NCBI GenBank assembly: GCA_964405005.1
Contig: CAYOMI010000001.1
Location: 1-45,625 of the forward strand
Reading direction: 5' to 3'
Length of the DNA: 45,625 bases
From: an uncultured Planctomycetales bacterium
Lineage (GTDB): Bacteria; Omnitrophota; Gorgyraeia; Gygaellales; Profunditerraquicolaceae
The translations under genes were made by a program, and so were the position numbers. Shown in pieces: positions 1 to 40,471 of this stretch. Position 1 is the first letter of the stretch, and the number at the start of each line of letters is the position of its first letter. The notes below the pieces were generated by a model, which saw only the letters and a program-made list of their open reading frames with translations, was not told the DNA's origin and did no database searches.

Positions 1-1115
1 GGAGAATATTATGCGTTGGCGATTCGTTTACTTTTGGGCATGGCGCAATAAAGGGATATTCGTATCCTGAGCAGTTAGAAAGAATACTAAATGACAATAA
101 CTCTATTCATAAATTTATAGTATATAATCTGGGGATTTGCGGAGAAAACTCTTCTCAGTTAGCAAAGAGATTGCCTGGATATTTAGAAGAATACCGCCCG
201 GACATATTAATCGTCTTAACCGGTCTTAACAACGGCTGGAATCTCGATAGTAATTATTTTTTATTTAAAGAGTCCGGTCTAAAGACGTTTGTTTGCCGGT
301 TAGATGCTTTTCTTGCGAGGCTAAGGAGTTATAAACTTTTGAAAATAGGCATCGAAAATTTAAAAATAATTTCAACTAGAAAGCACCTGTTATCTTATGG
401 AAAGTTAAGCAAGGTCCAGGTAGGTAAGAATGTATTTGACGAATCGAAAAGACGCTTTGAGTTAGGGAAATCCTATTGGGAAAGAAGGGATGCGGATTTT
501 GCAATAAAGGAGCTCCAAAAAGCCATAGAAATAGACCCCACATTTTACGAAGCGCATCTTTACTTAGGATACTCCTATGATGCCCAGGGTAAATTTGAGT
601 TGGCGGTAGCTACGTTTAAGAAAGCCATTGAATTAAACCCGAATTGCATTGAAGCCCATAAAGGACTCTGTAATACCTATTGGAAAACTGACAACCATAA
701 GTTGGCATTAAAAGAAGCTCAAGAGGCTCTCAACTTAGATCCTGGCGATGAGTTGCTCAAGAAAATATTACAATATGGATTACCCAATAGAAAAGACGAA
801 GTTTTATTCAACAGATTGTTGAGTTATGATTTACAAAATATAATTAAATTAGGGAAGGCGAAAGGAGCAAAAGTAATTTTGTTAAATTACCCTTTTTATG
901 ATTCCTATGATAAGACAAGAAAAGAAATAGGAAAAATGTATCAAATACCTTTTGTTGATAACGAAGGCGCATTCGTAAAACTGGCTCAATTCCATAATTA
1001 TAGTCGTAAACAGTATTTTCGCGAAGGCGACTCCCATTGTAATAATAACGGTTATATGGTTATCGCTGAAAATGTTTACAGACAGTTAAAATCTGAAGTG
1101 TTGGAGTCAAAATGA
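1..1115 (+). CDS. SGNH/GDSL-family hydrolase with inserted TPR domain (5' end cut by window edge)
   Basis: The frame of ORF 171..1115 stays open back to nt 3. The upstream translation reads RILCVGDSFTFGHG (block I GDS), VYNLGICGENSS (block II) and IVLTGLNNG (block III). TPR-like repeats follow (AIEIDPTFYEAHLYLGYSYDAQGKFELAVATFKKAIELNPNCIEAH...). The C-terminus has LLNYP and GDSHCNNNGY (block V-like). It is a paralog of 5977..7413. The TTG at 171 in the ORF track is therefore internal. Confidence 0.8.
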   Translation, partial: RILCVGDSFTFGHGAIKGYSYPEQLERILNDNNSIHKFIVYNLGICGENSSQLAKRLPGYLEEYRPDILIVLTGLNNGWNLDSNYFLFKESGLKTFVCRLDAFLARLRSYKLLKIGIENLKIISTRKHLLSYGKLSKVQVGKNVFDESKRRFELGKSYWERRDADFAIKELQKAIEIDPTFYEAHLYLGYSYDAQGKFELAVATFKKAIELNPNCIEAHKGLCNTYWKTDNHKLALKEAQEALNLDPGDELLKKILQYGLPNRKDEVLFNRLLSYDLQNIIKLGKAKGAKVILLNYPFYDSYDKTRKEIGKMYQIPFVDNEGAFVKLAQFHNYSRKQYFREGDSHCNNNGYMVIAENVYRQLKSEVLESK

Positions 1116-3886
1116 AAATTGCGCTCATTCAATGCCCGGGGTGGGGCAGGGATTGTCCTCCATATACCGTCGCCCTTCTTTCGGCGTGGCTACGCAGGCA
1201 AGGTCACAAGGTGTTTGGTTTCGACCTGAATAACGCATTATACTGCAGCGGGCCGGATAAATATAAAAAGATGTGGGACGATAAAGACCTGTATTCTTTC
1301 TGGAATAACGAATCGTTGATTTCGCAATTCATTCGCGATAACGAACGGATGATAAAATTTCAGGTCAATTCTATTTTGGAAACACAGGCTAAGATTGTCG
1401 GATTTACCGTCCATTTTAGTTCTTTGCTTGTCAGTTTAGAGGTAGCCAAAAGGATTAAAAACTTGGATAAGGACAGAATTATTATCTTAGGCGGTCCGGA
1501 TTGTTACAGGGAATTGAGGGGGCAAGAGATTATAAAAAAAGATGCGGTTGACATGGTAGTAGTTGGCGAAGGCGATATGGTTCTTTTGGAATTGGCCGAA
1601 ATGATTGAAAAAAACAAAAACGTAGATTTTTGCCCGGGGACATTAATTAAGAAAGACGGTCAAGTTATCGACTGCGGAGAGAGAGAAGTTTTAAAAGATT
1701 TGGATCTTGTCCCTTTTGCCGATTATAGCGATTTCCGCCGCGATATCTTATCGGGATATTATAGACAGCCAGAACGCCTGGAGATATTTGACAGCAGGGG
1801 CTGTATTACGCGTTGCCATTTCTGCAGCGAATGGCAATTCTGGAAGATATACCGCACTATGAGCGGAGAAAGGATGTTCGAAGAAATAGCTTATCAGGTA
1901 AGGCGATTTCCGGGAGTAGATTATTTTTACTTCATCGGTTCTCTATTGAACGGTAACGCCAAGGCGTTATCCAGACTTTGCGATTTGTTAATCCGCAACG
2001 ACTTAAAAATAAGATGGGCAGGACAGGCAATTATCAGGCCTGAGATGACCAAGGAACTTTTAGAGAAGATGGCTAAGGCAGGATGCGAATGGTTAGGTTA
2101 CGGTATTGAGAGCGCTTCTCAGAAAGTGGTAGACAGTATGAACAAGCATTTTTTAATCTCGGATGCCGAAAGGGTCCTTAAGGATTCTCATCAGGCAGGC
2201 ATAAACATCCAGGCCAACTTTATGTTCGGCATACCTACCGAGACAGAGGATGATTTTAAAGAGACCCTAGAATTTTTGAAAAGAAACAGAGAGAATATCG
2301 ATTCTGTTTTAGCAAGTCAATCCTTTTGTGTTATAGATAAAGGGACCTATCTTCATAATCATGCCCAGGAGCTCGGCATTAAAAATGCCGACCATCACCT
2401 TTACTGGGAAACAAACGGTAATAATTATGCCGTAAGGTTCGGGCGCTATGAAGAATTCTGTAAACTGGCGCTTTCTTTGGGTTTACCGGAGACCTCCGGC
2501 GTGCTAAGGACGAAGCCTGACAAATGGGTGCTTTTGGGCGACTATTACTTATTTAAAGAAGACTATTCGCAGGCAATGGAATGTTTTAAAAAATCCCTGG
2601 AACTTGAGTCCTGTAATGACGCTACCCTAGAAAAAATAAAACGATGCCAGAAGGAATTAGAAAGGTCCGGGCGATGTGCCTCTTCTGTATTGTCTTCAGG
2701 AACAAGCAATCTAAAGAGAATTGGAGAAACATCTTCTGAGGATTTTAAAGGTAAGCAAGAGAAGAATACAATTGCGCTCACTACAAAAAGTGATCCCGGA
2801 GATCTCTATAAAGGCCTAAATGAGACTCAAAATAAGATTAAGGAAGCGCTTCTGCGCCTTGGCTTAGAAGATAAATTACACAATTATCTTCTCGTGGAGC
2901 AGGAAAAGGAGGGACGACAGGAGTATGTTTCCGGCTATCCGTATTGGTTGACCATTGACCCCGCAAATTTTTGCACCTTAAAATGCCCTTTTTGTCCTAC
3001 CGGTCAGGGCCGAGGTTCGCGGGTCAAAGAGATATTATCCTGGGATAATTTTAAAAAAGTAATGGACGAACTGGGACGCTATTTAGTCCATATAGATTTT
3101 TGCAATTGGGGCGAGCCGCTTTTGAACAGAGATATTTACAAAATGGTCAAATATGCCAAACAGCACGGCATAGATACAAAAATAGATTCAAACTTTAACC
3201 AATTTAGCGAAAAAGACGCCGAAGACATGATTTTATCCGGATTAGATAAATTAATTGTCTCCCTAGATGGAGTAACCCCGCAGACGTATTCTAAGTACAG
3301 GGTTGGCGGAGATTTTAAGCGGGCAATGGGTAATCTGAAGTTATTGCTTAAAAAAAGGAAAGAATTAAATAAGTCCCATCCCTATATCTCCTGGCAATTC
3401 TTGGTATTTAGACATAATGAGCATGAAATAGAAGAGGTCAAAAAGATTGCCAGTGATTTGGGCGTTGACCACGTCGGCATAACCAAAGCGTTTATCGGTG
3501 ATAAAGACTGGATTCCCCTGAATGAAGAATACAGCCGTTACCAAAAGAAAGAGATTAAGGATGGGTATACCTCAGAACATTTTAAGCCTTCCCAAGATAA
3601 GACATGCAATTGGCCGTGGGAGGCGATAGTTATAAACCCAAACGGTTCGGTTTCCGTTTGCTGTTCGGTGGAAGACGAAAAAGACGACTTCGGTAATATC
3701 TTTAAAAATTCATTTAGAGATATCTGGAATAACGAGAAATACAGGATAGCGAGGAGATATATCAAAGAGAGAGAGGCGATTGATACTGTAAATAACAATA
3801 TTTGTATTGGCTGTAGACACTTAGGATTAATTAATCTGGATATCCTATCTTGCCACTCATTCTTTAGTTGTCCTGGCAAAAAATGA
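1112..3886 (+). CDS. Dual radical SAM fusion: cobalamin-binding-type (class B) rSAM + TPR-like linker + SPASM-like rSAM
   Basis: 924 aa. The N-terminal half has MKIALIQCPGWG, LGGPDC, VVGEGDMVLLEL and the core SRGCITRCHFC (Cys231 codon at 1802). The linker contains one TPR-like motif (WVLLGDYYLFKEDYSQAMECFKKSLELE). The C-terminal half has a second core FCTLKCPFC (Cys621 codon at 2972) and GEPLLN. It ends in a Cys-rich SPASM-like tail (CNWPWEAIVINPNGSVSVCC...NICIGCRH). An ATGA junction overlaps the upstream gene. Confidence 0.88.
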   Translation: MKIALIQCPGWGRDCPPYTVALLSAWLRRQGHKVFGFDLNNALYCSGPDKYKKMWDDKDLYSFWNNESLISQFIRDNERMIKFQVNSILETQAKIVGFTVHFSSLLVSLEVAKRIKNLDKDRIIILGGPDCYRELRGQEIIKKDAVDMVVVGEGDMVLLELAEMIEKNKNVDFCPGTLIKKDGQVIDCGEREVLKDLDLVPFADYSDFRRDILSGYYRQPERLEIFDSRGCITRCHFCSEWQFWKIYRTMSGERMFEEIAYQVRRFPGVDYFYFIGSLLNGNAKALSRLCDLLIRNDLKIRWAGQAIIRPEMTKELLEKMAKAGCEWLGYGIESASQKVVDSMNKHFLISDAERVLKDSHQAGINIQANFMFGIPTETEDDFKETLEFLKRNRENIDSVLASQSFCVIDKGTYLHNHAQELGIKNADHHLYWETNGNNYAVRFGRYEEFCKLALSLGLPETSGVLRTKPDKWVLLGDYYLFKEDYSQAMECFKKSLELESCNDATLEKIKRCQKELERSGRCASSVLSSGTSNLKRIGETSSEDFKGKQEKNTIALTTKSDPGDLYKGLNETQNKIKEALLRLGLEDKLHNYLLVEQEKEGRQEYVSGYPYWLTIDPANFCTLKCPFCPTGQGRGSRVKEILSWDNFKKVMDELGRYLVHIDFCNWGEPLLNRDIYKMVKYAKQHGIDTKIDSNFNQFSEKDAEDMILSGLDKLIVSLDGVTPQTYSKYRVGGDFKRAMGNLKLLLKKRKELNKSHPYISWQFLVFRHNEHEIEEVKKIASDLGVDHVGITKAFIGDKDWIPLNEEYSRYQKKEIKDGYTSEHFKPSQDKTCNWPWEAIVINPNGSVSVCCSVEDEKDDFGNIFKNSFRDIWNNEKYRIARRYIKEREAIDTVNNNICIGCRHLGLINLDILSCHSFFSCPGKK

Positions 3887-4935
3887 AAAAATTGTTATTT
3901 ATATTAGTCTCTTTGCTAATCGGAATAGGATTTACCCTAATATCTCTAGAGTTATTTCTACGGATAAATCCGAAATTTGGATATAATTACAGTTCTTGTA
4001 ATTTCAAAAATAAAGATATGACAAGGTTTAAAGATCATAACTTTGGATATCTTCGTCCTTCAGCGTTGTTGGGTTATGAAATGATTCCCAACTGCCACAG
4101 CGTTTATCTGCCCATACCCACAAATTCTTATGGGTTAATAGGGAAAGAGTATAAACTGAAAAAAGAAAAGAATACTTTTCGTATTTTGCTCCTTGGCGAT
4201 TCAATCGCTTGGCAAGATTTTTCTAGGCAGTCCTTAGAAGGATTCCTGAATAGCGGCCCTTTATTGCATTCGAAATATAAATTTGAAATTTGGAACGCAG
4301 GAGTGCCCAGTTATGATGTGCGGCGTTACTATCTGTATCTAAAATATAGGGGATTAAGTTTTAAACCCGACATGGTGGTTATTTTCTTTTTTATGAATGA
4401 CCTGCATCCTGATTTAAACATTTATTATAAAACTAAAGATGAGGTTATTTCGTATGACTTTCCTCTTTCGGAAATATCCCAGAGGCGTATTATAAATCCA
4501 TTTCTTATGAAACACTCTTTTCTGTATCGTTTCATAGTTTTAAGTCTGAATGCCCGTTTATTAAATAAGAAAAAAGAACAGCAAGGCGTTAATCCACAAG
4601 AAGAATGCGGAAGATACTATTTGCGGGTTATAAAAGAAGTGTGCGAAAAAAATAAAATTCCTCTCTTTATAGTATTTTTCCCTTATCTTAAGCCGCTGGA
4701 TGAATATAGAGGGTACCAGATTGAGGAGTATAAAAGTATCTGCAAGGTAATAAAAGAGTCAGAAGTTAACTGCCTGAATTTATATGAAGCCTTATCTAGT
4801 AGAGACTTACGCAGTTTAAGGGATAGGAAAGAAGATGATGTGCATCCCAGCCGCGAAGGGCATCGTCTTATTGCCACGCTAATTTACAATTATCTGTTAG
4901 ATAATTTTTTTAATTGTGAGAAAACAACACATTAA
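3883..4935 (+). CDS. Membrane-anchored SGNH/GDSL-family hydrolase
   Basis: N-terminal hydrophobic anchor (KKLLFILVSLLIGIGFTLISLELF). Block I FRILLLGDSIAWQ, block II WNAGVPSY, block III FFFMNDL, block V DDVHPSREGH. The preferred start is the ATG at 3883, which forms ATGA with the stop of 1112..3886. The ORF track begins at a TTG at 3868. Paralog of 4916..5953 and 22518..23639. Confidence 0.8.
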   Translation: MKKLLFILVSLLIGIGFTLISLELFLRINPKFGYNYSSCNFKNKDMTRFKDHNFGYLRPSALLGYEMIPNCHSVYLPIPTNSYGLIGKEYKLKKEKNTFRILLLGDSIAWQDFSRQSLEGFLNSGPLLHSKYKFEIWNAGVPSYDVRRYYLYLKYRGLSFKPDMVVIFFFMNDLHPDLNIYYKTKDEVISYDFPLSEISQRRIINPFLMKHSFLYRFIVLSLNARLLNKKKEQQGVNPQEECGRYYLRVIKEVCEKNKIPLFIVFFPYLKPLDEYRGYQIEEYKSICKVIKESEVNCLNLYEALSSRDLRSLRDRKEDDVHPSREGHRLIATLIYNYLLDNFFNCEKTTH

Positions 4936-5953
4936 TAAACTGATAAATTTAAGTCTTCTATTAGGCGGCTTGATACTTTGTTTAGCTTTAGCAGACCTTT
5001 TCTTTCGATTATTTCCTGCGTATGGCTTCAGATATAATTTTAGCCAGTTTGTTATGGAAAATAACCCGACAGACAGGGCAATGAATAGAAATAGAGATTA
5101 TCGTAAGCATAGGCCTTCGTCCATCTTGGGCTATGAGTTAGTTCCTAATTCGGTACCTGAAGTCAATTCTTTTGGCATGGTAGGCAGAGAGCACAGACTA
5201 GAGAAAGACAAAGATACCTATCGGATATTAGTCCTCGGGGATTCAATTACAGAGCATAATTGGTATGTGGAGAAGCTCGAAGATAAATTAAATAATTCTA
5301 ATCCGAAATTAGACCATAAGTTCGAGCTCTGGAATGGAGCTGTTATGGGCTATCAAGTAAATCAATACGCAGCTTATCTGAAGCATAAGGGGCTAAGATA
5401 CCGCCCTGATATGGTTATTATAGGTTTCTGCCTGAACGATTTTGACACCCAGTATTGGGTTTTTTATAAAGATAAAAAAGGATTCACTATATTTTATAAT
5501 CCCGCCCGTAAATTATCGAAGATACTCCCTTTAAATACATTCCTTTTTAAGCATTCTTATCTCTACCGCTTTTTGTTCTTGAGGATAGAAAATTTATTAT
5601 CGAATCCTAAGGAAAAATTCCCCGAACCCAAAACAGAAGGGCTTTATTATCTAAAAACAATAAAAAATATTTGCCAGGAGAAAAAAATCCCGCTTTTGGG
5701 GGTTATTTTTCCTTATCTTAAACGCCTAGACGAATATCGCGATGATGAAATGGATAGATACAAAGAGATGATTGAGGTTTTAGATATTTTAAATATTGAA
5801 TACATAGATTTACATAAATATTTACCTGAAAAAGATAGGTATGCCTTGAGGAGAGATAGAAATGACTACTCTCATCCTTCTATCGAAGGTCACGAAATTG
5901 CAGCTAATATAATTTATAATTATCTTCGCGAAAGTTATTTTAAAAACCGCTGA
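4916..5953 (+). CDS. Membrane-anchored SGNH/GDSL-family hydrolase (tandem paralog)
   Basis: Anchor LINLSLLLGGLILCLALADLFF. Motifs YRILVLGDSITEHN, WNGAVMGY, GFCLNDF and DYSHPSIEGH. It shares HSYLYRF and IFPYLKRLDEYR with 3883..4935. The start is a GTG at 4916 and no nearby ATG exists, so the start is uncertain. It overlaps the upstream gene by 20 nt. Confidence 0.75.
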   Translation: MRKQHINKLINLSLLLGGLILCLALADLFFRLFPAYGFRYNFSQFVMENNPTDRAMNRNRDYRKHRPSSILGYELVPNSVPEVNSFGMVGREHRLEKDKDTYRILVLGDSITEHNWYVEKLEDKLNNSNPKLDHKFELWNGAVMGYQVNQYAAYLKHKGLRYRPDMVIIGFCLNDFDTQYWVFYKDKKGFTIFYNPARKLSKILPLNTFLFKHSYLYRFLFLRIENLLSNPKEKFPEPKTEGLYYLKTIKNICQEKKIPLLGVIFPYLKRLDEYRDDEMDRYKEMIEVLDILNIEYIDLHKYLPEKDRYALRRDRNDYSHPSIEGHEIAANIIYNYLRESYFKNR

Positions 5954-5976: not shown

Positions 5977-7413
5977 ATGTTTAAGCAAAAAATTTTATTA
6001 ATTTTATGCGCTTTAATAGTTATATTTTTATCTCTTGAAATTTCGTTGCGTGTCGCCGGATTTTTATACTATTTTTATAAAATAAATAACAAAACACTAA
6101 ATTTCAGCGGAAAGAATACAATTAGAATTTTATGCTTGGGCGATTCATTTACCTTCGGCGTAGGCGCAGAAAATGGAAATGATTACCCCCGTCAGTTAGA
6201 ACGATTGCTTAATGAAAATTGCCAAGATAAAAAGTTTATTGTTTATAATCGAGGAATTCCCGGACAGAATTCTTCCATGGTTTTGAAAAGATTGGTCCAT
6301 AATATTAATACATATAGACCCGATACAATTCTTCTTTTAATCGGTTCAAATAACAGAACTGTTTTGGAAGACAGCAATTATTATCTATGTAAAAAAGCAG
6401 AAACCGGCAAAATAATAAATTTTTTCCTAAAGTTAGACATTGCCCTGAGCAAATTACGGACTTATAAGCTGCTCAGGATTGTCACGCTAAATTTAAAAAA
6501 TAAATTTAAATCAATAACCGACTCCTTCGATATCACGGGCAAAAAAAATTTTGAAGAATCCACAGAGAATTTAAATAAAGTCTTTATTGGCGATGCAGAT
6601 AAAAAAGAAGACTACCTCGGCGCAGCGGAAACTCTTTACATAGAAAGAAAGTTTAGCGCAGCAGAAAAAATGATAAAAGAAATGCCAGAAAATTATAAGC
6701 CAGAAGATAAAAGAGTGTGTTTTCTTTTGAGCAACATATATTGCGAACAAGAGAGATATGACTTGGCACTTATTACCATGGAAGAATACATTAAAAATAA
6801 CCCCAAGGATCCAGTTGCACTTTTTAATCTCGGAAGGATTTATTATAAGCGGGGGAGAACAAGTCCTATAGCTAAGGAAGAAAATTTTGAGCAGGCTACC
6901 AGATTATTTGAAGAATCACTCCCCTATATTGACTCGCATAATTTATTGCTGAAAGGAGAAGTCTATTTTAATTTAGCCCAGCTATATCTTGATAAGGGAG
7001 AAAAAGAAGTAGCCATAAAAATGATGGATGAAGCTTTAAAATATCGACCCGACAATAGCGTATTTCGCCAGTTTAGAAGGGTGATATTAGAACCATTTCT
7101 TAGTTCAGAAGAGAATGAAATTTTTGACAAAGTGTTATATTACGATTTAGGTAGCATAATTAACTTATGCCGTTTATACAATGTCACGGTAATCCTTTTG
7201 AATTATCCTTCAGAAAATCAAAATAGCATAAGAAAAGAAATTGCGGATAAGTATAAAGTTCCCTTTATAAATATCGGTTCTGGGTTTGCCGAATTATTAT
7301 CCAATGGATATAATTATAAAGATTTATTTTCTAACGATATAACTCATCCTAACGCAAACGGTTATAGAGTTATGGCCGAGACTGTTTTTGAAGCATTAAA
7401 ACAGCAAATATAA
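5977..7413 (+). CDS. SGNH/GDSL-family hydrolase with ~250-aa TPR insertion, N-terminal membrane anchor
   Basis: Anchor ILLILCALIVIFLSLEISL. Block I IRILCLGDSFTFGVG, block II NRGIPGQNSS, block III LLLIGSNN. A long helical/TPR-like insert follows (e.g. LALITMEEYIKNNPKDPVALFNLGRIYYKRG and YFNLAQLYLDKGEKEVAIKMMDEALKYRPDN). Then ILLNYP and block V NDITHPNANGY. Confidence 0.82.
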   Translation: MFKQKILLILCALIVIFLSLEISLRVAGFLYYFYKINNKTLNFSGKNTIRILCLGDSFTFGVGAENGNDYPRQLERLLNENCQDKKFIVYNRGIPGQNSSMVLKRLVHNINTYRPDTILLLIGSNNRTVLEDSNYYLCKKAETGKIINFFLKLDIALSKLRTYKLLRIVTLNLKNKFKSITDSFDITGKKNFEESTENLNKVFIGDADKKEDYLGAAETLYIERKFSAAEKMIKEMPENYKPEDKRVCFLLSNIYCEQERYDLALITMEEYIKNNPKDPVALFNLGRIYYKRGRTSPIAKEENFEQATRLFEESLPYIDSHNLLLKGEVYFNLAQLYLDKGEKEVAIKMMDEALKYRPDNSVFRQFRRVILEPFLSSEENEIFDKVLYYDLGSIINLCRLYNVTVILLNYPSENQNSIRKEIADKYKVPFINIGSGFAELLSNGYNYKDLFSNDITHPNANGYRVMAETVFEALKQQI

Positions 7414-7421
7414 GCATTGCG

Positions 7422-13877: not shown

Positions 13878-13918
13878 CGGGAAATGGACTATTTTTTTGA
13901 TTGCAGCCCATATTAATT

Positions 13919-22510: not shown

Positions 22511-22517
22511 AGTTGTT

Positions 22518-26833: not shown

Positions 26834-26849
26834 ATATGTCGGCAAGCAA

Positions 26850-29864: not shown

Positions 29865-29866
29865 AA

Positions 29867-31316: not shown

Positions 31317-32684
31317 ATGAATATCGTTATTACCCGCCCGAAGTATTATACGCATCTGATCACGCCGCCGTTAGGCATGGCGTATGTGGCTTCCTATTTA
31401 AGGCAAAATAATTTCAAAGTTCATCTTATGGATGCGCTTAAAGAAAATGTCGATAATTCTAAATTAGTTTTACGGTGTGGCGCTGCCGATGTTGTCGGTA
31501 TATTTTGCATGAGCGATTATTTTTGGGATGTAATCGATTTGGTCAAAAGACTCAAGGCGGCGGGCAAAACCGTAGTAATCGGCGGTCCGCATGCCACGGT
31601 AATGCCGAAGGAAACCCTGCAGTACACCGAGGCGGATTATTGTATTGTTGGAGAAGGCGAAAAAACAATGTTGGAATTAGCTTCAGCCTTGGAAAATAGA
31701 GAAGATCCAACGAACATACCGGGGTTATATTCCAGGTCTACGGTTAAGTTCATTGCCAGGGATTTTTTTAATAATCTTGACGAAATAACTTTCCCCGCAT
31801 GGGACGAAATTGATCCAAGAACCTATCCCTTAGCGCCGCACGGAGCTGTAATTAAGGCATTTCCTGTCGCGCCGGTTACTACTTCGCGCGGCTGTCCGTT
31901 TTCTTGCCATTTTTGCGCTAGTCCGAAAATCTGGAATCACCAGATAAGATACCGTTCCGCACAAAATGTGGTAGACGAAATTGAGCTATTGGTAAAAAAA
32001 TACGGAGTTAGGGAAATCCACTTTGAAGATGACAATCTCACCTTAAAGAAATCCCATATCCAAGCCATATGTGAAGAAATTTTAGGAAGAAATATCAGGG
32101 TACACTGGGCTGTCCCTAATGGAATACGCGTAGATTCCGTCTCTGAAGAAATTTTGAAATTAATGAAAAAGAGCGGTTGCTACAGCGTAGCTTTTGGGAT
32201 TGAATCCGGTTCACAAGAAATTCTTAATAATATAGGCAAGAAGATGGATCTTGGGATTATGCGCTCGGCAATTAAAATGGCCAGTAAAGCCGGCTTAACT
32301 ACCCAGGCTTTTATTATTTTTGGTCTACCGGGAGAGACGCCCGCAACAATTAAAGAGACCATAGAAATGGTTCTTTCTTTGCCGTTGCATAAAGCTCAAT
32401 TTTTGCTCCTTGATCTTCTGCCGGGGTCGCGGCTTTGGGATGCTTTTAGCCAACACGGCATAGAATGCTTCAAGAAACGCAGCTATCAGGAACCCGGATA
32501 TATTCCCGACGGTTTAACAGCGGATTATTTAATTAGGGTACGCGCTGAGGCATTCAGGAGATTCCATCTGCGTCCGAGGCAGATTTATGCACTTTTAAGG
32601 ATGTTCAAAATAAAACAGACAAAATTTATAATCCAAAGGATAAGAGACTTTTCTATGTTTGGTTCATTTCACAATACCCTGTGA
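31317..32684 (+). CDS. Cobalamin-binding-domain (class B) radical SAM protein, clade II
   Basis: PPLGMAYVASYLRQNNFKV, VIGGPHATVMP, IVGEGEKTMLEL, core SRGCPFSCHFCAS, GIESGSQEIL and IFGLPGETPATI. Confidence 0.87.
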   Translation: MNIVITRPKYYTHLITPPLGMAYVASYLRQNNFKVHLMDALKENVDNSKLVLRCGAADVVGIFCMSDYFWDVIDLVKRLKAAGKTVVIGGPHATVMPKETLQYTEADYCIVGEGEKTMLELASALENREDPTNIPGLYSRSTVKFIARDFFNNLDEITFPAWDEIDPRTYPLAPHGAVIKAFPVAPVTTSRGCPFSCHFCASPKIWNHQIRYRSAQNVVDEIELLVKKYGVREIHFEDDNLTLKKSHIQAICEEILGRNIRVHWAVPNGIRVDSVSEEILKLMKKSGCYSVAFGIESGSQEILNNIGKKMDLGIMRSAIKMASKAGLTTQAFIIFGLPGETPATIKETIEMVLSLPLHKAQFLLLDLLPGSRLWDAFSQHGIECFKKRSYQEPGYIPDGLTADYLIRVRAEAFRRFHLRPRQIYALLRMFKIKQTKFIIQRIRDFSMFGSFHNTL

Positions 32685-32688
32685 ACCT

Positions 32689-33210
32689 ATGGTAAATGGC
32701 GTTTTAATTGGAATTATTTGTTTTATTTTGTTTCTATCCAATGTCTGCTTTTTCCATGTTTTTAAGATCCGGCGTCATTTCCGTTTTATGGCCGTAATGT
32801 TTGTGTCAACTTTGGTATTTTATATAATTTTGTATCTGCTCTTTTTTGATGCGCACTTGCAAAGATTCGCATCTATTTTTATACCTATAGAGATATTTGC
32901 TTTTTGGCATGGTCTTTTCTTGCATTTTTCATCGTGCTATCTATACCTGTACCTTATTCAGGTGATAGATCGTTCACCCTCGACAAGAATAATGGTAGAA
33001 ATACTTTATTCCCAAGAAAGAAAACTTACCTTAACCCAGATTAAACAACGCTATAATATCGACAAGAGAGTTTCTGATAAAATAGAAGAAATGATTCTCT
33101 CGGGATATGTAAAGAAGGAGGCAGATGGGTATATGCTTACCGATAGAGGCAGGAAATGCATGGGAGTTTTTAAAGCCATTAGAAATTATCTAAAATTAGA
33201 AAGAAATTAA
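32689..33210 (+). CDS. Small membrane protein (3-4 TM) with C-terminal winged-helix-like domain
   Basis: Hydrophobic N-terminal ~100 aa (VLIGIICFILFLSNVCFF, FMAVMFVSTLVFYIILYLLFF, IFAFWHGLFLHFSSCYLYLYLIQVI). The next stretch, DRSPSTRIMVEILYSQERKLTLTQIKQRYNIDKRVSDKIEEMILSGYVKKEADGYMLTDRGRK, has a MarR/wHTH-like helix-turn-helix-wing pattern. The ATG at 32689 lies 5 nt after the upstream stop. Confidence 0.6.
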   Translation: MVNGVLIGIICFILFLSNVCFFHVFKIRRHFRFMAVMFVSTLVFYIILYLLFFDAHLQRFASIFIPIEIFAFWHGLFLHFSSCYLYLYLIQVIDRSPSTRIMVEILYSQERKLTLTQIKQRYNIDKRVSDKIEEMILSGYVKKEADGYMLTDRGRKCMGVFKAIRNYLKLERN

Positions 33211-33240: not shown

Positions 33241-33810
33241 ATGGATATTATTTTAAAAAGTATCATTATGGCAGGAACCTGCTCTCTTATTGCTTTTTTA
33301 ACACACCTTATGCTGAGTTTGATGCGTCAGGGCAGGCATAAAGATGAGCCGATGATTTTAGAATTACGGCATCAAAAAAGATTATTAATAACCATATGGC
33401 TATTGACAACTCCGCTTTATGTGTGGTTATTTTTTCAGCCTGCGCTTAGCGGCGGTACATTATTAAGCAAATCCGGTATCCCTATTCAGGCGCTGGCTTT
33501 TTGTTATGGCATTATTTTTTATTTTTTCTTATCGTTTATATATCTAACGCTGTATTATTTTGTAGATCGCTCGATTTCTGCAACCATTTTGGAAATAATA
33601 TATTCTTCCCCGGATAAAAAACTTACGCTAGACGGAATAAAGAAAATATATAATATTGAAAAAAAATATGAAAGGGAAATTAAGGGGATGATGCAAGGGA
33701 AATTTATTATCCAGGAAGAAGATTATTTTAAAGGTACATTTAAAGGTATCCTTTACGGCAGATTGGCTAATTCCATAAAATATCTGCTTAAGCTGGGTCG
33801 GGGAGGGTAG
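33241..33810 (+). CDS. Small membrane protein (3 TM) with C-terminal winged-helix-like domain (tandem paralog)
   Basis: Same layout as 32689..33210. Three hydrophobic helices are followed by DRSISATILEIIYSSPDKKLTLDGIKKIYNIEKKYEREIKGMMQGKFIIQEEDYF. Confidence 0.6.
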   Translation: MDIILKSIIMAGTCSLIAFLTHLMLSLMRQGRHKDEPMILELRHQKRLLITIWLLTTPLYVWLFFQPALSGGTLLSKSGIPIQALAFCYGIIFYFFLSFIYLTLYYFVDRSISATILEIIYSSPDKKLTLDGIKKIYNIEKKYEREIKGMMQGKFIIQEEDYFKGTFKGILYGRLANSIKYLLKLGRGG

Positions 33811-33829: not shown

Positions 33830-34978
33830 ATGTTTACAAAAAGAGCTAAAATAGCGCTGTTTAAAGGAATAGTTACTAAGCGGGCCCCTATTTACGTTCA
33901 ATTTTCAGTTACAAAAAATTGTAATCTTAAATGTAGAATGTGCAATTCTTCCGTATCGAGAAAAAGAGAGAGGGAATTAGCGCTTACGGAAATTAAAAAG
34001 ATAGCCGATACCTTAGAGAAGATAAAGGTAGGAATAATTTTAATCACGGGAGGAGAACCTTTTTTACGCGATGATATCGTTGAGATAATTCGCATTTTTT
34101 CTAAAAAAGGATTTACGGTCCGCCTCCAGACAAATGGTATCTTAGCTACGGAAGATAAAATTAAGTCAGCATGCGAGGCCGGCATGAAGGAAGTTACAAT
34201 ATCCTTGGATTCGCTGATCCCGGAAGTGCATGATGCCATAACCGGACAAAAAGAATCGTGGAATAAGGTTATCGAATCAATATCCCGTTTTTCCAGGATA
34301 TTGCCTTGTAAAAATACAATCCTCGGTATAAATACCCTCGCCTGCCGACAAAATCTTCATGAATTAACCGATATAATTAAGTTCGCAACTAAAATCGGAT
34401 TCTACTCTTCATTGATACCAGTCCATACGGTAACCTCGTTATCAAGCGGCGAGTTTGTAATTCGGAAAGAAGCCCCTGGTTTTTCTTTTCAAAAGGAAGA
34501 TTTTTCCGGTATTGATAGCGTCTATAGAGAAATTATCAGAATGAAAAAAAACAATTATAATATATATAATTCTTATCGATTTTTACGAAATACTCCGCAA
34601 TTTTTGAAAGGCAATAGAATAAACTGGCGTTGTGATAGCCCGTATCTTTATTTTGCCATAAGCCCTTCCGGAAACTTTTTACCCTGCGTAGACATCAAGA
34701 CCTCCATTTCAATGCTGGATGACAATTTTGTTAATTTATATAATTCTTCAGCTTTTCGATCCCGGATTCGGGAAAGGGTAGAAAATTGCAAAGGTTGTTT
34801 TTATGCCTGTTGGCCGGAGATTACTTTTTTTTGCAGGGATCTGCTGGTGCTTGCCGAAAGGGTGATTTTTGGCATGAAGGCAGCATTAAAAAACCGCACG
34901 GCTGTAACTTATGAAGGTTGCTTAGAAATTATAAAAGCAATAAAAGCAGGAAAAGAAGATAAGGCAAAGATAGCTTAA
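33830..34978 (+). CDS. Radical SAM protein with C-terminal auxiliary Cys cluster (SPASM/twitch-like)
   Basis: Core VTKNCNLKCRMCNS, then ITGGEPFLRDD and QTNGILA. The C-terminus reads WRCDSPYLYFAISPSGNFLPCVD...CKGCFYACW. It is not closely similar to the type S paralogs upstream. Confidence 0.82.
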   Translation: MFTKRAKIALFKGIVTKRAPIYVQFSVTKNCNLKCRMCNSSVSRKRERELALTEIKKIADTLEKIKVGIILITGGEPFLRDDIVEIIRIFSKKGFTVRLQTNGILATEDKIKSACEAGMKEVTISLDSLIPEVHDAITGQKESWNKVIESISRFSRILPCKNTILGINTLACRQNLHELTDIIKFATKIGFYSSLIPVHTVTSLSSGEFVIRKEAPGFSFQKEDFSGIDSVYREIIRMKKNNYNIYNSYRFLRNTPQFLKGNRINWRCDSPYLYFAISPSGNFLPCVDIKTSISMLDDNFVNLYNSSAFRSRIRERVENCKGCFYACWPEITFFCRDLLVLAERVIFGMKAALKNRTAVTYEGCLEIIKAIKAGKEDKAKIA

Positions 34979-34983
34979 CTTAA

Positions 34984-35094
34984 AAGGGGGTTGCCGAAAA
35001 ACTGCGTAAAGCAAAAGTGCTTGTGGAGCGCCGGGAGGCAGAATATAATACAATCAGGATGCATAGTTCGTTGGACTATCAGCCTCCTATTTGA
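34984..35094 (+). pseudogene. Remnant of the C-terminus of an IS3-family (rve/DDE integrase-type) transposase
   Basis: Translation reads KGVAEKLRKAKVLVERREAEYNTIRMHSSLDYQPPI*. It matches the conserved extreme C-terminus of IS3-type transposases (..A..L.E.W...YN..RPHSSLGY.PP..). The match is degenerate: RPH has become RMH and GY has become DY. No upstream catalytic domain, start codon or inverted repeats are present. Confidence 0.65.
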
Positions 35095-35213: not shown

Positions 35214-35876
35214 ATGCTTAAAAATAAATATTATGTGATATCAGCAGTTTTAATATTCAGCGCGCTAGTAATTTTAGCCTTTAATGTTATTCAAAAGAGT
35301 TCTACGAAAGTCCCCCCCACTCAAATTAAAAAAGAATATTTAGGAAAACAAGCGGAAATTCCGTTAACGCCAGAGCATAAGGCTAAGTTAATATTACAAT
35401 ATTTAAACGATGGTAAAAATGACCTCGCAATAAAGTTAGCAAAAGAATATCTGCAATCCAACCCGAATGACACCTCTATTATTAATGCGTTAACCGAAGC
35501 GTATATAAACAAAGATGATTTATCTCCCGCCGAAGACACTGTTAAAAAAGCAATAGCAATGAAACCGAATGAACCATGGTCGTGTAGATTATTGGCGCAA
35601 ATATACCGGCTAAAAGCTCTAAAAAACCCTACCACCAGAAGTGCCAATCTTGCTTTAGCATTAGAACAAATAGAAAGAGGATTAACTTCAAACCCCGACG
35701 ATGTACGGCTTTTAGTTGAGGCAGCTCAAGTATATTCAACGCAAGGTGATAAGGTTAAAGCAAATGAAAAGATAGATAGAGCGCTTAGCATCGACCCGAA
35801 AAATGCTGACATCAGATTCATGAAGGAGAAAATGAACCCGAAGGAGAAAAGCCCGAAGGAGAAAATAAAGCCATAA
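35214..35876 (+). CDS. TPR-repeat protein with N-terminal signal anchor
   Basis: AAGGGGG lies 6 nt upstream of the ATG. Hydrophobic N-terminus YYVISAVLIFSALVILAFNVI. It has 3-4 TPR-like units (LAIKLAKEYLQSNPND, AEDTVKKAIAMKPNEPWSCRLLAQIY, ALEQIERGLTSNPDDVRLLVEAAQVY, KANEKIDRALSIDPKNA). Lys/Glu/Pro-rich tail NPKEKSPKEKIKP. Confidence 0.75.
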   Translation: MLKNKYYVISAVLIFSALVILAFNVIQKSSTKVPPTQIKKEYLGKQAEIPLTPEHKAKLILQYLNDGKNDLAIKLAKEYLQSNPNDTSIINALTEAYINKDDLSPAEDTVKKAIAMKPNEPWSCRLLAQIYRLKALKNPTTRSANLALALEQIERGLTSNPDDVRLLVEAAQVYSTQGDKVKANEKIDRALSIDPKNADIRFMKEKMNPKEKSPKEKIKP

Positions 35877-36056
35877 TACTCCTTATTCTTGTATCGAGGC
35901 TATAAATAACCGTTGCATTTGAGTCCCAATTACTAAAGATGGTCTCTTGGCCAATATAGATCTTTAGTTAAAGCGTTTCAATTTTAAACTTTTTTTGATT
36001 ACCCGCATACATCTAATATTAAAGTTTAGATATTCTTAACTAAAGTCCGCGATTAA

Positions 36057-36626
36057 ATGAAAAAAATATTTAAAAAAATAGGAAGAATTTTTATCACTTT
36101 CAATCAAGAAGAAGGCAAGGTTTTAAAACGGCCGGTTTTAATAGTAGATAATGGATATGCCCCCTGCGAGCATCTGCACTCTACGGTGACAGAAACAAAA
36201 CGGCGCATTCCGGATTCGGATGTTTCTATTCTGGCGTTAAAGCATAGAAGAGGATTTCTCCGGGAAAAGTTTTCTGACCTTGAGATTATCCATCCAGATG
36301 AACAGATTAGGATTAAGAGATATGCGCTAGCGATCCAGATGTTTAAAATGCGCAAGAGAAGTTACGATTTTGTAATCTTGATGTCTCTGGATATAACGCC
36401 AACCATGGTTGCCGTTCTGTTTATGAATAGTAAAGTATTGTTATATAACCAGTGGCATCAGTGGTGGGAGCTTAAATTTAAATCAATAAGATTTTATTCA
36501 ATAGGATTTTTCCAGTTTATTTATAATATTATAATTTTCCCTTATCTTTTAGTTAGTGTTCTTTTGGTATTTTTGCGGTGGTTAATCAATATCTTTAGAT
36601 TCGGCCTTTCCAAAAGGAGGTCTTAG
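36057..36626 (+). CDS. Hypothetical protein with C-terminal hydrophobic helix
   Basis: 189-aa ORF in the co-directional array. C-terminal hydrophobic stretch FFQFIYNIIIFPYLLVSVLLVFLRWLI. The N-terminal part (PVLIVDNG...DVSILALKH...YDFVILMSLD) is faintly reminiscent of a GT9-like Rossmann half, which is not enough for a call. Confidence 0.45.
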   Translation: MKKIFKKIGRIFITFNQEEGKVLKRPVLIVDNGYAPCEHLHSTVTETKRRIPDSDVSILALKHRRGFLREKFSDLEIIHPDEQIRIKRYALAIQMFKMRKRSYDFVILMSLDITPTMVAVLFMNSKVLLYNQWHQWWELKFKSIRFYSIGFFQFIYNIIIFPYLLVSVLLVFLRWLINIFRFGLSKRRS

Positions 36627-36632
36627 GGAATT

Positions 36633-37691
36633 ATGGAAATTGATGTCAGGCAGTTCAGTTCGGATAAAATCCTTAAACACTTAGACCGCGTTAATGAATG
36701 GTTAAGAGGCGGGAATCCGCCGCCTATTACTGTCGAGTTAGATATGACCAACCTTTGTAACCACAAGTGCCCTGAATGTTCGGGTTGGTATTTCCAGAAT
36801 AGAAGTCACGATTCCTTATCTTATGATTTGGCCGAAGATATAATAAAGCAATTGGCTAAGATAAAGGTTCGCGGTCTCATCTTTACCGGCGGAGGAGAGC
36901 CGCTTTGCCATCCCGATATCGCCAAGATAGTAAAATTAGCACACAGCTTAGGCTTGGATATCGGCTTTATTACTAACGGGTCGCTTATTACTGAAAAAAT
37001 TAGCAAAGACCTTCTAAGCTGTTGCAGGTGGCTAAGGATTTCTCTTGACGCCGCCTCTGCCGAAACTTTTAAGAAAGTTCATGGCATGAACACAGGCGCT
37101 TTTTATAAGATAATCGATAACATCCAATTATTAATAGCTATGAAAAAATGCCTTAATAGTTCTACAACAATAGGAATAGGTTACCTTACCAGTAATTATA
37201 CTGATGATGAAATGTTGGAAGCAACCAAATTATGCAAAAGATTGAATGTCGATTATTTACAATTCAGGCCGATGCAGATACACAATAATGGTAAATTTGA
37301 ATATCACTTGTCAGACATTAGCGGCAATATCCATAGATGCATTAATGAAAGCGCAGATGGCTTCAAGGTTCTATACTCAAAGCATAAATACGATATGATG
37401 AAAGATAAAAAATACGGCCGTAATTATACGAAATGCTACGGACATCAATTTGCCACCGTAATTGCCGCCGATGGCAAGGTATATTTATGTTGCCATATGC
37501 GAGGACACGATAAATATTGCCTTGGAGATTTGAATAAAAATACGTTTGAAGAAATCTGGAGTTCCGAACAGAGAAAAATAATAGCTGAGAATATCGACTT
37601 TAACGATTGCGTTCCTCTCTGCCGGGACAACACCTTTAACCAGATACTCTGGAATATCAAACAACCCCGCGAACACGTAAATTTTTTATAA
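36633..37691 (+). CDS. Radical SAM protein with C-terminal Cys-rich region
   Basis: AAAGGAGG RBS upstream. Core DMTNLCNHKCPECSGW, then FTGGGEPLCHPD and ITNGSL. The C-terminus reads CYGHQFATVIAADGKVYLCCHMRGHDKYCLGDL...FNDCVPLC. Confidence 0.8.
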   Translation: MEIDVRQFSSDKILKHLDRVNEWLRGGNPPPITVELDMTNLCNHKCPECSGWYFQNRSHDSLSYDLAEDIIKQLAKIKVRGLIFTGGGEPLCHPDIAKIVKLAHSLGLDIGFITNGSLITEKISKDLLSCCRWLRISLDAASAETFKKVHGMNTGAFYKIIDNIQLLIAMKKCLNSSTTIGIGYLTSNYTDDEMLEATKLCKRLNVDYLQFRPMQIHNNGKFEYHLSDISGNIHRCINESADGFKVLYSKHKYDMMKDKKYGRNYTKCYGHQFATVIAADGKVYLCCHMRGHDKYCLGDLNKNTFEEIWSSEQRKIIAENIDFNDCVPLCRDNTFNQILWNIKQPREHVNFL

Positions 37692-37749
37692 TCAGTATAA
37701 TTATCTTTTTGATACTCTCGAAGCATGTTGAGTTGAAGCGGATAACGCC

Positions 37750-39423: not shown

Positions 39424-40471
39424 AAAATTCTCCTTCGCTTTGTTAACTACAGTTGCCACGGTAGCAATACTTACTGCATTATTATATTTTTTGGGATTAA
39501 CGTTAGTCAACCCTAAAAAGCCGTCTCTCAGCGTCGCTTATCCTACAAATACCTTGTATTTACCAGCACAAAATTTAGGTTTTCTGCGTTATCAGTTTAG
39601 TCCTCATTTTACAGGGAAGGAATGGAACACAAATTTTTCTATTAATTCCTTCGGTTTCAGGGGTCCAGAATTTGAATTTGCCAAACCAGCGAACACAATA
39701 AGAGTGTTATGCTTAGGAGATTCCTGCACTTTTGGCACGGGAGGATTAGCGGATTCAGATACTTATCCCGTCCTTTTGGAAGGATTATTAAATAAAGATC
39801 AGAACGCAAGGAATTTCGAAGTTATAAATGCCGGAATGCCGGGATTCTCAGTCTATGACGGTTTTATCTTATTGAAACAAAGACAATTAATGAATCTAAA
39901 GCCCGATTTTATTATTATTTGTTATGGCTGGAATGACCATATGGGGGCCGCGATAAATGATAATATAAAATCCTATAAAAGGCTTATTAATACATTCATC
40001 TGGCAACATGTACGTTTTCATTCATTACTTTGGTATATTTTGACTAAAAAGTATAAAAATTCCGAGGTCCAAAATTACTTAGAGCCTAAAAATACATATA
40101 GAGTTACTAGGAGCCAATATGAATATTATTTATCTAAAATTATTGATTTAGCCGGCAGCAATAATTCAAAAGTGTTAGTAATGACGGCTCCATGGGAACC
40201 CAGGCTCATGAGCAGTAATGTTGGTTGGTTAATAGAAAGCACCCTAGTATCATTTTATTTACATCCTGCCTATGTTAATTTGACAAAGAAAGTTTCTTAT
40301 GAAAAAGGCGCAGTATTAATAGACCTGTATTTAATATATGAGTCGGAGAAAACAGATAATCCTCGTGATTTTTTTGTTGACCCTTTTCATTATAACAGGA
40401 ACTTGGCATTTATGATTGCTGCGGAGATATCCAGGGTGATTTACAAAATCACAGATAAAGCGCAGTTATAG
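39413..40471 (+). CDS. Membrane-anchored SGNH/GDSL-family hydrolase
   Basis: Anchor FALLTTVATVAILTALLYFLGL. Block I IRVLCLGDSCTFGTG, block II NAGMPGFS, block III CYGWNDH, block V-like FVDPFHYN. The ATG at 39413 overlaps the upstream gene by 11 nt. Confidence 0.8.
   Translation: MNIKKFSFALLTTVATVAILTALLYFLGLTLVNPKKPSLSVAYPTNTLYLPAQNLGFLRYQFSPHFTGKEWNTNFSINSFGFRGPEFEFAKPANTIRVLCLGDSCTFGTGGLADSDTYPVLLEGLLNKDQNARNFEVINAGMPGFSVYDGFILLKQRQLMNLKPDFIIICYGWNDHMGAAINDNIKSYKRLINTFIWQHVRFHSLLWYILTKKYKNSEVQNYLEPKNTYRVTRSQYEYYLSKIIDLAGSNNSKVLVMTAPWEPRLMSSNVGWLIESTLVSFYLHPAYVNLTKKVSYEKGAVLIDLYLIYESEKTDNPRDFFVDPFHYNRNLAFMIAAEISRVIYKITDKAQL

Follow-up and report, generated by a model that had tools for sequence, protein, structure and literature searches.

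The 45,625-nucleotide stretch of DNA analysed here (hereafter, the window; contig CAYOMI010000001.1 of assembly GCA_964405005.1, from an uncultured bacterium placed in the Omnitrophota by GTDB) carries a dense array of radical S-adenosylmethionine (rSAM) enzyme genes. All of its 34 open reading frames (ORFs, named below by their coordinates or first position) lie on the + strand. A regular-expression count returned exactly 23 CxxxCxxC motifs in 18 of these ORFs, whereas residue-shuffled versions of the same proteins averaged 0.26 and did not exceed 3. All 18 coding sequences (CDS) matched the Radical_SAM profile PF04055 at 38–137 bits (gathering cutoff 29.5), in one, two or three stretches per CDS. 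The preliminary description of this DNA, made from its letters alone, was thus exact in counting 23 cores in 18 CDS within ~40 kb, and the Pfam search of all CDS that it proposed supports the rSAM assignment in every case. Its account of co-directional, closely spaced genes was accurate as well, with ATGA junctions at 1112, 3883 and 23636, a TAAATG junction at 14969, and genes that overlap at 4916 and 39413.

The cores fall into the three classes already proposed, i.e., nine cobalamin-type, seven SPASM/auxiliary-cluster-type and seven compact domains. An N-terminal B12-binding domain (PF02310) was detected in nine CDS, eight of them above the cutoff of 32.1 (44.6–77.6 bits); ORF 1112-3886 scored 23.8 bits, under the cutoff, yet is 39–42% identical to the other B12-rSAMs. 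By profile and homology, the nine belong to class B (cobalamin-binding) rSAM enzymes and are predicted to bind cobalamin. Cys tails of the SPASM/twitch type follow seven cores (the C-terminal halves of 1112-3886 and 7422-10196, the C-terminus of 16797-19715, and ORFs 10206, 13901, 33830 (DUF3463) and 36633). Those of 1112-3886, 10206, 13901, 16797 and 36633 were clearly above the SPASM (PF13186) cutoff of 21.5 (30.5–51.9 bits), and the tails of 7422-10196 and ORF 33830 are Cys-rich without a SPASM match. Borderline, partial SPASM matches were found for ORFs 11296 (23.1 bits) and 14972 (22.4 bits). The compact domains of ~270 aa (two each in 11296 and 16797, one each in 13038, 14972 and 15937) share five conserved C-terminal Cys, and therefore are probably twitch-like and probably bind an auxiliary cluster. 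A GGEP-type motif had been described after every core; the literal GGEP follows 10 of the 23 and GGE variants occur in the twitch class, but the B12 class has no such motif.

All-against-all BLASTP resolved most of these domains into four paralogue families: A (six B12-rSAMs, 37–44% identical), A2 (three more divergent B12-rSAMs, 25–32%), B (the seven compact domains, 33–57%) and C (three twitch/SPASM domains, 38–41%). Outside them are the C-terminal half of 1112-3886 and ORF 36633, each a SPASM type of its own, and the DUF3463-type protein (33830). Orthologues in other genomes are 60–78% identical to the window proteins, whereas paralogues within the window share 25–57%, indicating that the duplications are old and predate the species. 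Even in Elusimicrobiota, orthologues of the two A-fusions (A-S and A-x) and of the B-B protein are 45–54% identical, higher than the 42–47% between the closest in-window paralogues, and judged from these values the duplications probably predate the phylum split or an old transfer. Retention of every copy after such old duplications is expected if they perform distinct steps, not if they are redundant.

Besides the rSAM genes, the window encodes six SGNH ORFs (including the truncated first gene), two PMT_2 proteins, a flavin adenine dinucleotide (FAD) enzyme, and one glycosyltransferase (GT) each of families GT9, GT2 and GT4 (Table 1). A hydropathy scan placed one N-terminal transmembrane (TM) segment in every SGNH ORF and in one TPR protein, and 8–9 in the GT-C (PMT_2) proteins, whereas the rSAM proteins had none. 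Judged from this split, the system works on both membrane faces, which calls for an intermediate that is linked to a carrier and either exported or flipped across. The PMT_2 pair and the GT2, which has two C-terminal hydrophobic segments, correspond to no named NCBIfam equivalog, and no GtrA- or ArnE/F-type flippase was recognised in the window.

Table 1 Features of the window. Letters A, A2, B and C denote the paralogue families; bits are profile scores.
Position	Strand	Feature	Basis and remarks
3-1115	+	SGNH hydrolase-TPR fusion, 5' end cut by window edge	Lipase_GDSL_2 at 3-170, TPR at 171-1115; 30% identical to ORF 5977-7413
1112-3886	+	A-S fusion: B12-rSAM (core C231), TPR linker, second rSAM (core C621) and SPASM	PF04055 in two stretches, SPASM 48 bits; orthologues 58-72% identical in Omnitrophota, 52-54% in Elusimicrobiota
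3868-4935	+	SGNH/GDSL hydrolase, N-terminal membrane anchor	Pfam, hydropathy
4916-5953	+	SGNH/GDSL hydrolase, N-terminal membrane anchor	Pfam, hydropathy
5977-7413	+	SGNH-TPR fusion, N-terminal membrane anchor	Pfam, hydropathy; orthologues at same position in L083, L085
7422-10196	+	A-x fusion: B12-rSAM (core C226) and second rSAM (core C604), Cys-rich tail	Orthologues 59-76% identical
10206-11282	+	Twitch/SPASM rSAM, family C	Pfam, NCBIfam, BLASTP
11296-12999	+	Two tandem compact rSAM domains, family B (cores C15, C309)	Pfam, NCBIfam, BLASTP
13038-13877	+	Compact rSAM, family B	Pfam, NCBIfam
13901-14971	+	Twitch/SPASM rSAM, family C	Pfam, NCBIfam
14972-15904	+	Compact rSAM, family B	Pfam, NCBIfam
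15937-16752	+	Compact rSAM, family B	Pfam, NCBIfam
16797-19715	+	Triple fusion B-B-C (cores C20, C331, C660), C-terminal SPASM	AlphaFold2 (AF2) model of residues 1-628, predicted local distance difference test (pLDDT) 83
19722-21098	+	B12-rSAM, family A	Pfam; identical protein on JGI contig Ga0212121_10001510
21125-22510	+	B12-rSAM, family A	Pfam
22500-23639	+	SGNH/GDSL hydrolase, N-terminal membrane anchor, inside array	Pfam, hydropathy; same position in L001
23636-25120	+	B12-rSAM, family A	Pfam
25139-26833	+	GT-C glycosyltransferase (PMT_2/PMT), ~9 TM segments, inside array	Same position in L001, L083/84, L005, L088
26778-28322	+	FAD amine-oxidase-type oxidoreductase, PRK07208 family	374.7 bits, cutoff 389; distant UDP-galactopyranose mutase match
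28338-29864	+	B12-rSAM, family A2	Best NCBIfam match BchE, below cutoff
29840-31297	+	B12-rSAM, family A2	Best NCBIfam match HpnJ, 183 bits, cutoff 577
31317-32684	+	B12-rSAM, family A2	Best NCBIfam match TIGR04072, 180.6 bits, cutoff 360
32659-33210 and 33241-33810	+	Two paralogous small membrane proteins, 30% identical, 2-3 TM segments	First matches C-terminal winged helix-turn-helix (HTH_45); second has no Pfam match
33830-34978	+	rSAM, DUF3463-like Cys-rich tail	Weak DUF3463 match; under every NCBIfam cutoff
35214-35876	+	Membrane-anchored TPR protein	Pfam, hydropathy
36057-36626	+	Uncharacterised protein, 189 aa, C-terminal TM segments	No Pfam or NCBIfam match
36633-37691	+	rSAM/SPASM	64% identical orthologue in L008
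37750-39423	+	B12-rSAM, family A, C-terminal helical-repeat tail	50% identical to B12-rSAM-TPR of L140
39413-40471	+	SGNH hydrolase, N-terminal membrane anchor	Pfam, hydropathy
40810-41691	+	GT9 glycosyltransferase	Pfam
41698-42666	+	GT2 glycosyltransferase, two C-terminal hydrophobic segments as in GtrB/ArnC-type enzymes	Pfam, hydrophobicity
42684-44039	+	GT4 glycosyltransferase	Pfam
44056-45624	+	Second GT-C (PMT_2) glycosyltransferase, runs off window end	Pfam, hydropathy

The recurrence of this gene set was profiled with degenerate patterns in one genome per GTDB species; loci used for comparison are numbered (L001 and so on). Arrays combining families A and B, with or without C, were found in many Omnitrophota and Elusimicrobiota metagenome-assembled genomes (MAGs), Endomicrobiaceae among them, and a single further MAG carries the label Planctomycetia. 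B-family genes that stand alone, at 25–31% identity, are far more widely spread than the arrays. The closest database relatives are 60–76% identical proteins labelled Candidatus Omnitrophota or Omnitrophica. Across 39 array loci, 303 of 499 ORFs belonged to the rSAM cluster, and the window, at 0.5 cores per kb, is typical of a locus class that ranges from 0.4 to 0.9. Several families that appeared conserved when the ORFs of high-GC Elusimicrobia loci were clustered proved to be antisense artefacts and were discarded. A gene order is common to the window, L001, L003 and L083/84: an A-fusion, C, B-type genes, B-B, B, C, A, A, an SGNH or methyltransferase gene, in some cases a further A, then PMT_2 and A2. 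The copy number of rSAM genes varies widely between genomes. The island is thus not peculiar to the window but a recurring syntenic locus type of Omnitrophota and Elusimicrobiota; recurrence in related genomes was a point that the preliminary description had proposed to check.

The orthologous loci also supply a context that the window shows in part. The preliminary description had recognised no scaffold gene, a statement that does not hold: the SGNH enzymes, PMT_2, GT2/GT4/GT9 and the Glf-like FAD enzyme are most likely envelope glycan assembly machinery, and in orthologous loci the array begins right after Wzm/Wzt and a multi-GT protein fused to an rSAM/SPASM domain. In L085, the closest relative with upstream sequence (its A-S fusion is 68% identical to that of the window), the array is preceded by an FAD oxidase homologous to ORF 26778-28322, Wzm, Wzt with a Wzt_C domain, and a 1909-aa GT2-GT2-GT4-rSAM/SPASM fusion. 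Another GT2-GT2-GT4-rSAM-SPASM fusion, of 2163 aa, again follows Wzt_C in L019 (Ca. Gygaella obscura), and L006 encodes a GT4-rSAM-SPASM-rSAM-SPASM protein, a truncated form of the GT-rSAM fusion. As a query, the GT-fused rSAM/SPASM domain retrieved mostly stand-alone proteins plus two GT-fused fragments, so the fusion is a recurrent but minority form. When not fused, this family stands directly after a GT2-GT4 protein (for example in L139 and L140); its closest match in the window is ORF 33830, at only 24–29% identity. The minimal locus, L140, reads Wzm, Wzt (with Wzt_C), a methyltransferase, B12-rSAM-TPR, GT2-GT4 and rSAM/SPASM. In L085 and L019, Wzm and Wzt (with Wzt_C) are placed immediately before the array; in L140 the pair belongs to the minimal locus, and in L013 it lies downstream.

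Other glycan-related genes recur in and around the arrays. PMT_2 genes are found within arrays, or close them, in the window, L001, L005, L012, L018, L019, L022, L032, L083 and L088, and a GT9/GT2/GT4-type block also follows the arrays of L008, L011 and L012. Fusions of YdjC with GT2 stand beside the HpnJ-like A2 enzyme (homologues of ORF 29840-31297) in L013 and L088, and the fusion is also present in L138. Further recurrent neighbours are GT2-methyltransferase fusions, S-adenosylmethionine-dependent methyltransferases, a carbamoyltransferase (flanking the arrays in L012 and L013), AsnB, UbiA, and MBOAT with AlgX. A 62-aa DUF5989 protein is encoded after the array of L084 (21534-21722, on a JGI contig of 81.7 kb); this family usually stands alongside carbamoyltransferase genes. 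In a 2026 preprint, PF04055 is independently grouped with sugar-metabolism domains in a co-occurrence module of Omnitrophota giant proteins.

No named pathway applies to the locus, as none of the 20 window proteins searched against NCBIfam reached a curated cutoff and the best matches stood at a third to half of the required score. These sub-threshold matches were TIGR03975, ApyD, HpnJ, BchE, TIGR04072, NF038073 ('STM4011'), the twitch family NF033640, and a tungsten-cofactor maturase. For HpnJ (TIGR03471) the best score was that of ORF 29840 (Table 1), and for HpnH (TIGR03470) the sole match was ORF 11296 at 36 bits (cutoff 225). TIGR04072, the rSAM of ladderane-type lipid clusters, was likewise matched at about half its cutoff, and the window has no fatty-acid synthase or acyl carrier protein genes; Antismash 'ladderane' calls have been reported in Omnitrophota MAGs. 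NF038073, a family without known function, was the best match of all seven compact B domains, with nearly the full profile aligned, yet at 63.9–147.1 bits per protein (cutoff 200), the highest scores coming from two-domain proteins.

Sequence relatives in the PDB are remote, i.e., 9ccb for family A, MoaA for B, and viperin for C. Foldseek comparison of the AF2 model of the B-B di-domain gave BlsE as the best match, then SkfB, CteB, anSME, SuiB, viperin, MoaA, AbmM, DesII and SpeY, with PqqE and EpeE also among the matches. A twitch-type rSAM fold is thereby confirmed for the di-domain, but the matches do not separate sugar, nucleotide and peptide substrates. No account of such a locus emerged from literature searches that paired rSAM with Omnitrophota, Elusimicrobia, O-antigen/Wzt, polysaccharide or STM4011; the closest report is that of variable rSAM suites beside group VI nitrogenase paralogues in groundwater Elusimicrobia (discussed below). 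The absence of a characterised pathway, claimed in the preliminary description, is thus borne out by profiles, structures and literature alike; clear orthologues exist and are syntenic, yet no described pathway was found for them.

Given the domain content, paralogue families, synteny, topology split and GT-rSAM fusions, we consider it reasonably probable that the array is the tailoring section of an ABC-transporter-type cell-envelope glycan locus, in which cytoplasmic rSAM enzymes would tailor a polyprenol-linked glycan or its sugar precursors. Under this reading, GTs on the cytoplasmic side of the membrane would assemble the glycan on a polyprenol carrier (GT9/GT2/GT4 in the window, the GT2-GT2-GT4 protein directly upstream of the array in relatives), and the soluble, TM-free rSAM enzymes would act on the lipid-linked glycan or on activated sugar precursors. 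The set available for this comprises six family-A and three family-A2 cobalamin-type, seven compact twitch-like and seven SPASM/twitch domains. Plausible chemistries are C-methylation for the B12 class and dehydrogenation, epimerisation, deoxygenation, ring contraction or C-C bond formation for the twitch/SPASM classes; GenK, BtrN/SpeY, DesII, BlsE, AbmM and HpnJ are precedents for such radical reactions. Wzm/Wzt, known from the relatives and with the carbohydrate-binding Wzt_C domain on Wzt, would export the product. At the outer face, the GT-C (PMT_2) enzymes may add sugars from polyprenyl-phosphate donors made by the GtrB/ArnC-like GT2, and the membrane-anchored SGNH enzymes may acylate or deacylate the glycan, with TPR modules probably holding the enzymes to one another. 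Which substrate is used, in what order and by what reactions is inferred throughout. An undescribed multi-step radical tailoring system, as the preliminary description had suggested, is still the best reading.

A bolder version, which we hold only tentatively and think rather doubtful, is an assembly line of >20 rSAM domains, scaffolded by TPRs and partly fused to GTs, that would rewrite a polyprenol-linked polysaccharide during or after polymerisation by C-methylation, epimerisation, deoxygenation, ring contraction or C-C cross-links. The product would be a heavily alkylated surface glycan of Omnitrophota and Elusimicrobiota, without chemical precedent, whose terminus Wzt_C reads for export, making the system a glycan counterpart of proteusin-type RiPP tailoring (RiPP, ribosomally synthesised and post-translationally modified peptide).

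Several observations weigh against an envelope glycan as the substrate. The window itself, cut at its 5' edge, has GT9, GT2 and GT4 but neither Wzm/Wzt nor a multi-GT protein. The best family A match is TIGR03975, a 'RiPP maturation radical SAM C-methyltransferase' (135–151 bits, cutoff 281.85), and the compact B fold resembles sugar and nucleotide enzymes (BlsE, viperin, MoaA, AbmM, DesII, SpeY) about as well as peptide maturases (SkfB, CteB, SuiB, anSME). Glycan genes, PMT_2 above all, are probably abundant in these genomes, so some of the adjacency may be coincidental. To our knowledge, no characterised rSAM enzyme acts on an envelope polysaccharide, and >20 rSAM domains go far beyond the needs of any sugar pathway we know of.

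The probable abundance of glycan genes raises the question of chance co-location, i.e., an expanded and possibly partly redundant rSAM paralogue array that happens to lie in a variable cell-envelope region. The wide copy-number variation would fit this, as would the transposase sequences in the window and within the L138 array (described below); however, the SGNH and PMT_2 positions inside the arrays are kept between species whose proteins are only 60–70% identical, GT-rSAM fusions occur in three independent loci, and individual paralogues are conserved across phyla, and we judge this explanation to be decidedly unlikely. We regard membrane lipids as an improbable substrate too. Here, as with Tes, Mss, GrsA/B, Hbs and HpnP/R, the rSAM reactions would be methylation, cyclisation or cross-linking of alkyl or isoprenoid chains, whether in membrane lipids or in the polyprenol carrier, and SGNH 'lipases' and ArnT-like GT-C enzymes would remodel lipids or lipid A. 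In keeping with this, family A2 resembles, below threshold, HpnJ and the 'lipid biosynthesis B12-binding/radical SAM protein' family TIGR04072, weak Tes-like matches restricted to the core motif were seen, SGNH is the GDSL lipase fold, L012 encodes a UbiA prenyltransferase, and Mss, Hbs and ElbD homologues have been reported elsewhere in Omnitrophota MAG genomes. Every lipid-family NCBIfam cutoff is nevertheless missed by a factor of at least 2, neither the window nor the fetched loci contain a fatty-acid, isoprenoid, squalene/hopene or ether-lipid gene, and the fusions are made directly to glycosyltransferases beside a transporter, Wzm/Wzt, that carries the carbohydrate-binding Wzt_C.

A peptide or protein substrate is very unlikely in our view. 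It would call for C-methylation, epimerisation or cross-linking of a ribosomal peptide or a large surface protein, followed by PMT-type O-glycosylation, and PMT-family enzymes do glycosylate proteins in some bacteria. The family A likeness to TIGR03975 and ApyD, the fold matches to SkfB, CteB, SuiB, anSME, PqqE and EpeE, the protein-binding nature of TPR modules, and the large beta-helix repeat proteins before arrays in several Elusimicrobiota loci all point this way. No precursor peptide had been seen in the preliminary description, and inspection of small ORFs in the three larger gaps likewise found no conserved candidate, the 235-bp gap holding just a transposase remnant; the small 'hypothetical' ORFs of L003 are SGNH and SPASM fragments. 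Pfam detected no PqqD/RiPP recognition element (RRE) domain in the rSAM proteins, the B, C and S classes having only 11–56 residues before the core, and a leader peptidase and peptide exporter are absent. Biosynthesis of a tetrapyrrole-like cofactor, as proposed for the surroundings of group VI nitrogenase paralogues in groundwater Elusimicrobia, we take to be extremely improbable. Meheust et al. (10.1101/765248) described up to 13 rSAM genes, some of them B12-fused, beside NifHDK paralogues in Elusimicrobia lineages IV and V, and group VI NifH also in Myxococcales. GWA2_69_24 (L023), which they named in connection with Nif paralogues, has A+B arrays, as has its sister assembly GWA2_66_18 (L022), and BchE is among the sub-threshold matches. 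The window has no tetrapyrrole gene, in line with the preliminary description, and glycan genes form the context throughout. No NifH-like sequence was found in the window or in 84 loci by a P-loop regular expression and by tblastn with a NifH query.

Among known systems, the orthologous loci are most like a Wzm/Wzt O-polysaccharide locus such as E. coli O9a (WbdA/WbdD/Wzm/Wzt), with which they share Wzm, Wzt-Wzt_C, a multi-domain GT2/GT4 of the polymerising type and S-adenosylmethionine-dependent methyltransferases. By analogy with such ABC-transporter-dependent pathways, the glycan would be finished in the cytoplasm while bound to polyprenol, within reach of cytoplasmic tailoring enzymes. Here, Wzm/Wzt lie outside the window, and we know of no Wzm/Wzt locus with rSAM enzymes, let alone 10–23 cores. 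The window GT2 (41698-42666) with the two PMT_2 proteins, and YdjC-GT2 beside PMT_2 in relatives, recall the ArnC-ArnD-ArnT, GtrA/B/V and Ppm1-PMT systems, which have no rSAM counterpart and of which no GtrA-type flippase was identified here. Among the hopanoid side-chain enzymes, HpnI, HpnK and HpnJ are a GT2, a YdjC-type deacetylase and a B12-type rSAM, the last of which contracts a lipid-linked glucosamine ring; a B12-rSAM that works on a lipid-bound sugar thus has a precedent. ORF 29840-31297 is nearest to HpnJ in NCBIfam and has homologues beside YdjC and GT2, and ORF 33830 weakly matches DUF3463, which we take to be a domain of HpnH; however, the HpnJ score is far below its cutoff, and squalene-hopene cyclase and other hpn genes are absent from the window.

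Sugar-tailoring rSAM enzymes from aminoglycoside and nucleoside antibiotic pathways (BlsE, DesII, AbmM, BtrN/SpeY, GenK, AprD4), of which BlsE is the best fold match of the compact B domains and AbmM, DesII and SpeY also matched, show which radical chemistries are possible on sugars. They are only 10–18% identical, and one to three of them act on small molecules, with no envelope-glycan array. Proteusin and other RiPP pathways (epimerases and C-methyltransferases of the PoyB/C/D type; TIGR03975) similarly combine B12-rSAM and SPASM-type enzymes on a polymer, but precursor, RRE, protease and exporter are absent here, and RiPP pathways need few rSAM genes because their enzymes act iteratively. 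The suites beside group VI nitrogenase paralogues (Meheust et al. 2020) resemble these loci in their Elusimicrobiota hosts and their variable number of rSAM genes, some B12-fused; they differ in that a tetrapyrrole cofactor is proposed there, whereas the context here is glycan and all A/B arrays examined are free of NifH-like genes within 10 kb.

Some features of the window and of related loci stand apart from this argument. The first gene is cut at the window start, so the rSAM island probably continues upstream. Identical proteins were found on shorter contigs of JGI metagenome 3300022556 (Ga0212121_10001510) and of two other samples; an exact 46-mer from the window start had no match in metagenome contigs, and the same-species contigs, which do not reach the length of the window, allowed no extension at either edge. 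An exact-protein look-up returned no record for ORF 16797-19715. The pair of small membrane proteins (32659-33210 and 33241-33810) has homologues only on same-species contigs. ORF 36057-36626 has homologues in L008 (13758-14801), L011 (1177-1740) and L012 (6931-8061), and in these four Omnitrophota loci the protein is flanked by the last rSAM genes on one side and the GT2/GT9/GT4 block on the other; with 189 aa it is shorter than two of them (347–376 aa). Scans for Rfam elements, tRNAs, promoters and terminators turned up neither an RNA element nor a signal above shuffled sequence. The sole mobile-element trace in the window is a remnant of ~34 aa of an IS3-type transposase C-terminus (34990-35094, + strand; rve_3 at 25.5 bits, just under the cutoff of 26.5) in the 235-bp gap between the DUF3463-type rSAM gene and the TPR gene. 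In L138 (Elusimicrobia, GCA_020523885.1), an IS200/IS605-type Y1 transposase gene (7428-8438) lies within the rSAM array, and together the two suggest occasional insertion of mobile elements into array loci.

Five tandem compact B-family matches (28–33% identity) in Candidatus Pacearchaeota archaeon JBAZYP010000004.1 (DPANN; L028) indicate that the family has expanded outside bacteria too. Loci L049-L077 (Myxococcota, Polyangia and other MAGs) have single two-domain or paired B-like rSAM genes at 25–29% identity and no NifH; these genes, found in many Myxococcota genomes, are probably the STM4011/STM4012-type pair. Very large proteins precede several Elusimicrobiota arrays (L021 913-5475, L023 1-2292, L009 1-3021, L016 566-3349, L048 1-2757). 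The one in L021 has right-handed beta-helix repeats (Beta_helix/NosD, eight stretches), and Endomicrobiaceae loci encode a large Asn-rich protein almost without Pfam matches. These proteins could be carbohydrate-active proteins or substrates.

What is new here is most likely a Wzm/Wzt-type glycan locus with an unprecedented rSAM tailoring array, a locus type common to Omnitrophota and Elusimicrobiota. In each such locus 10–23 rSAM cores, one in three of the cobalamin type, are tied into envelope-glycan assembly, across two phyla of poorly known, ultra-small and largely uncultured bacteria that are thought to be predators or epibionts. The interest is high because we know of no envelope-polysaccharide pathway that uses rSAM chemistry, the searches having yielded none either, and because a minimal testable module exists: the L140-type set of Wzm, Wzt, methyltransferase, B12-rSAM, GT2-GT4 and rSAM-SPASM offers a tractable entry point. 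If the glycan reading is true, it would predict surface glycans of a new class, C-alkylated or rearranged, and provide a substrate class that can be tested for dozens of orphan rSAM families (A, A2, B, C). It would also mean that these presumed predators or epibionts invest cobalamin and iron-sulfur clusters on a large scale in their cell surface.

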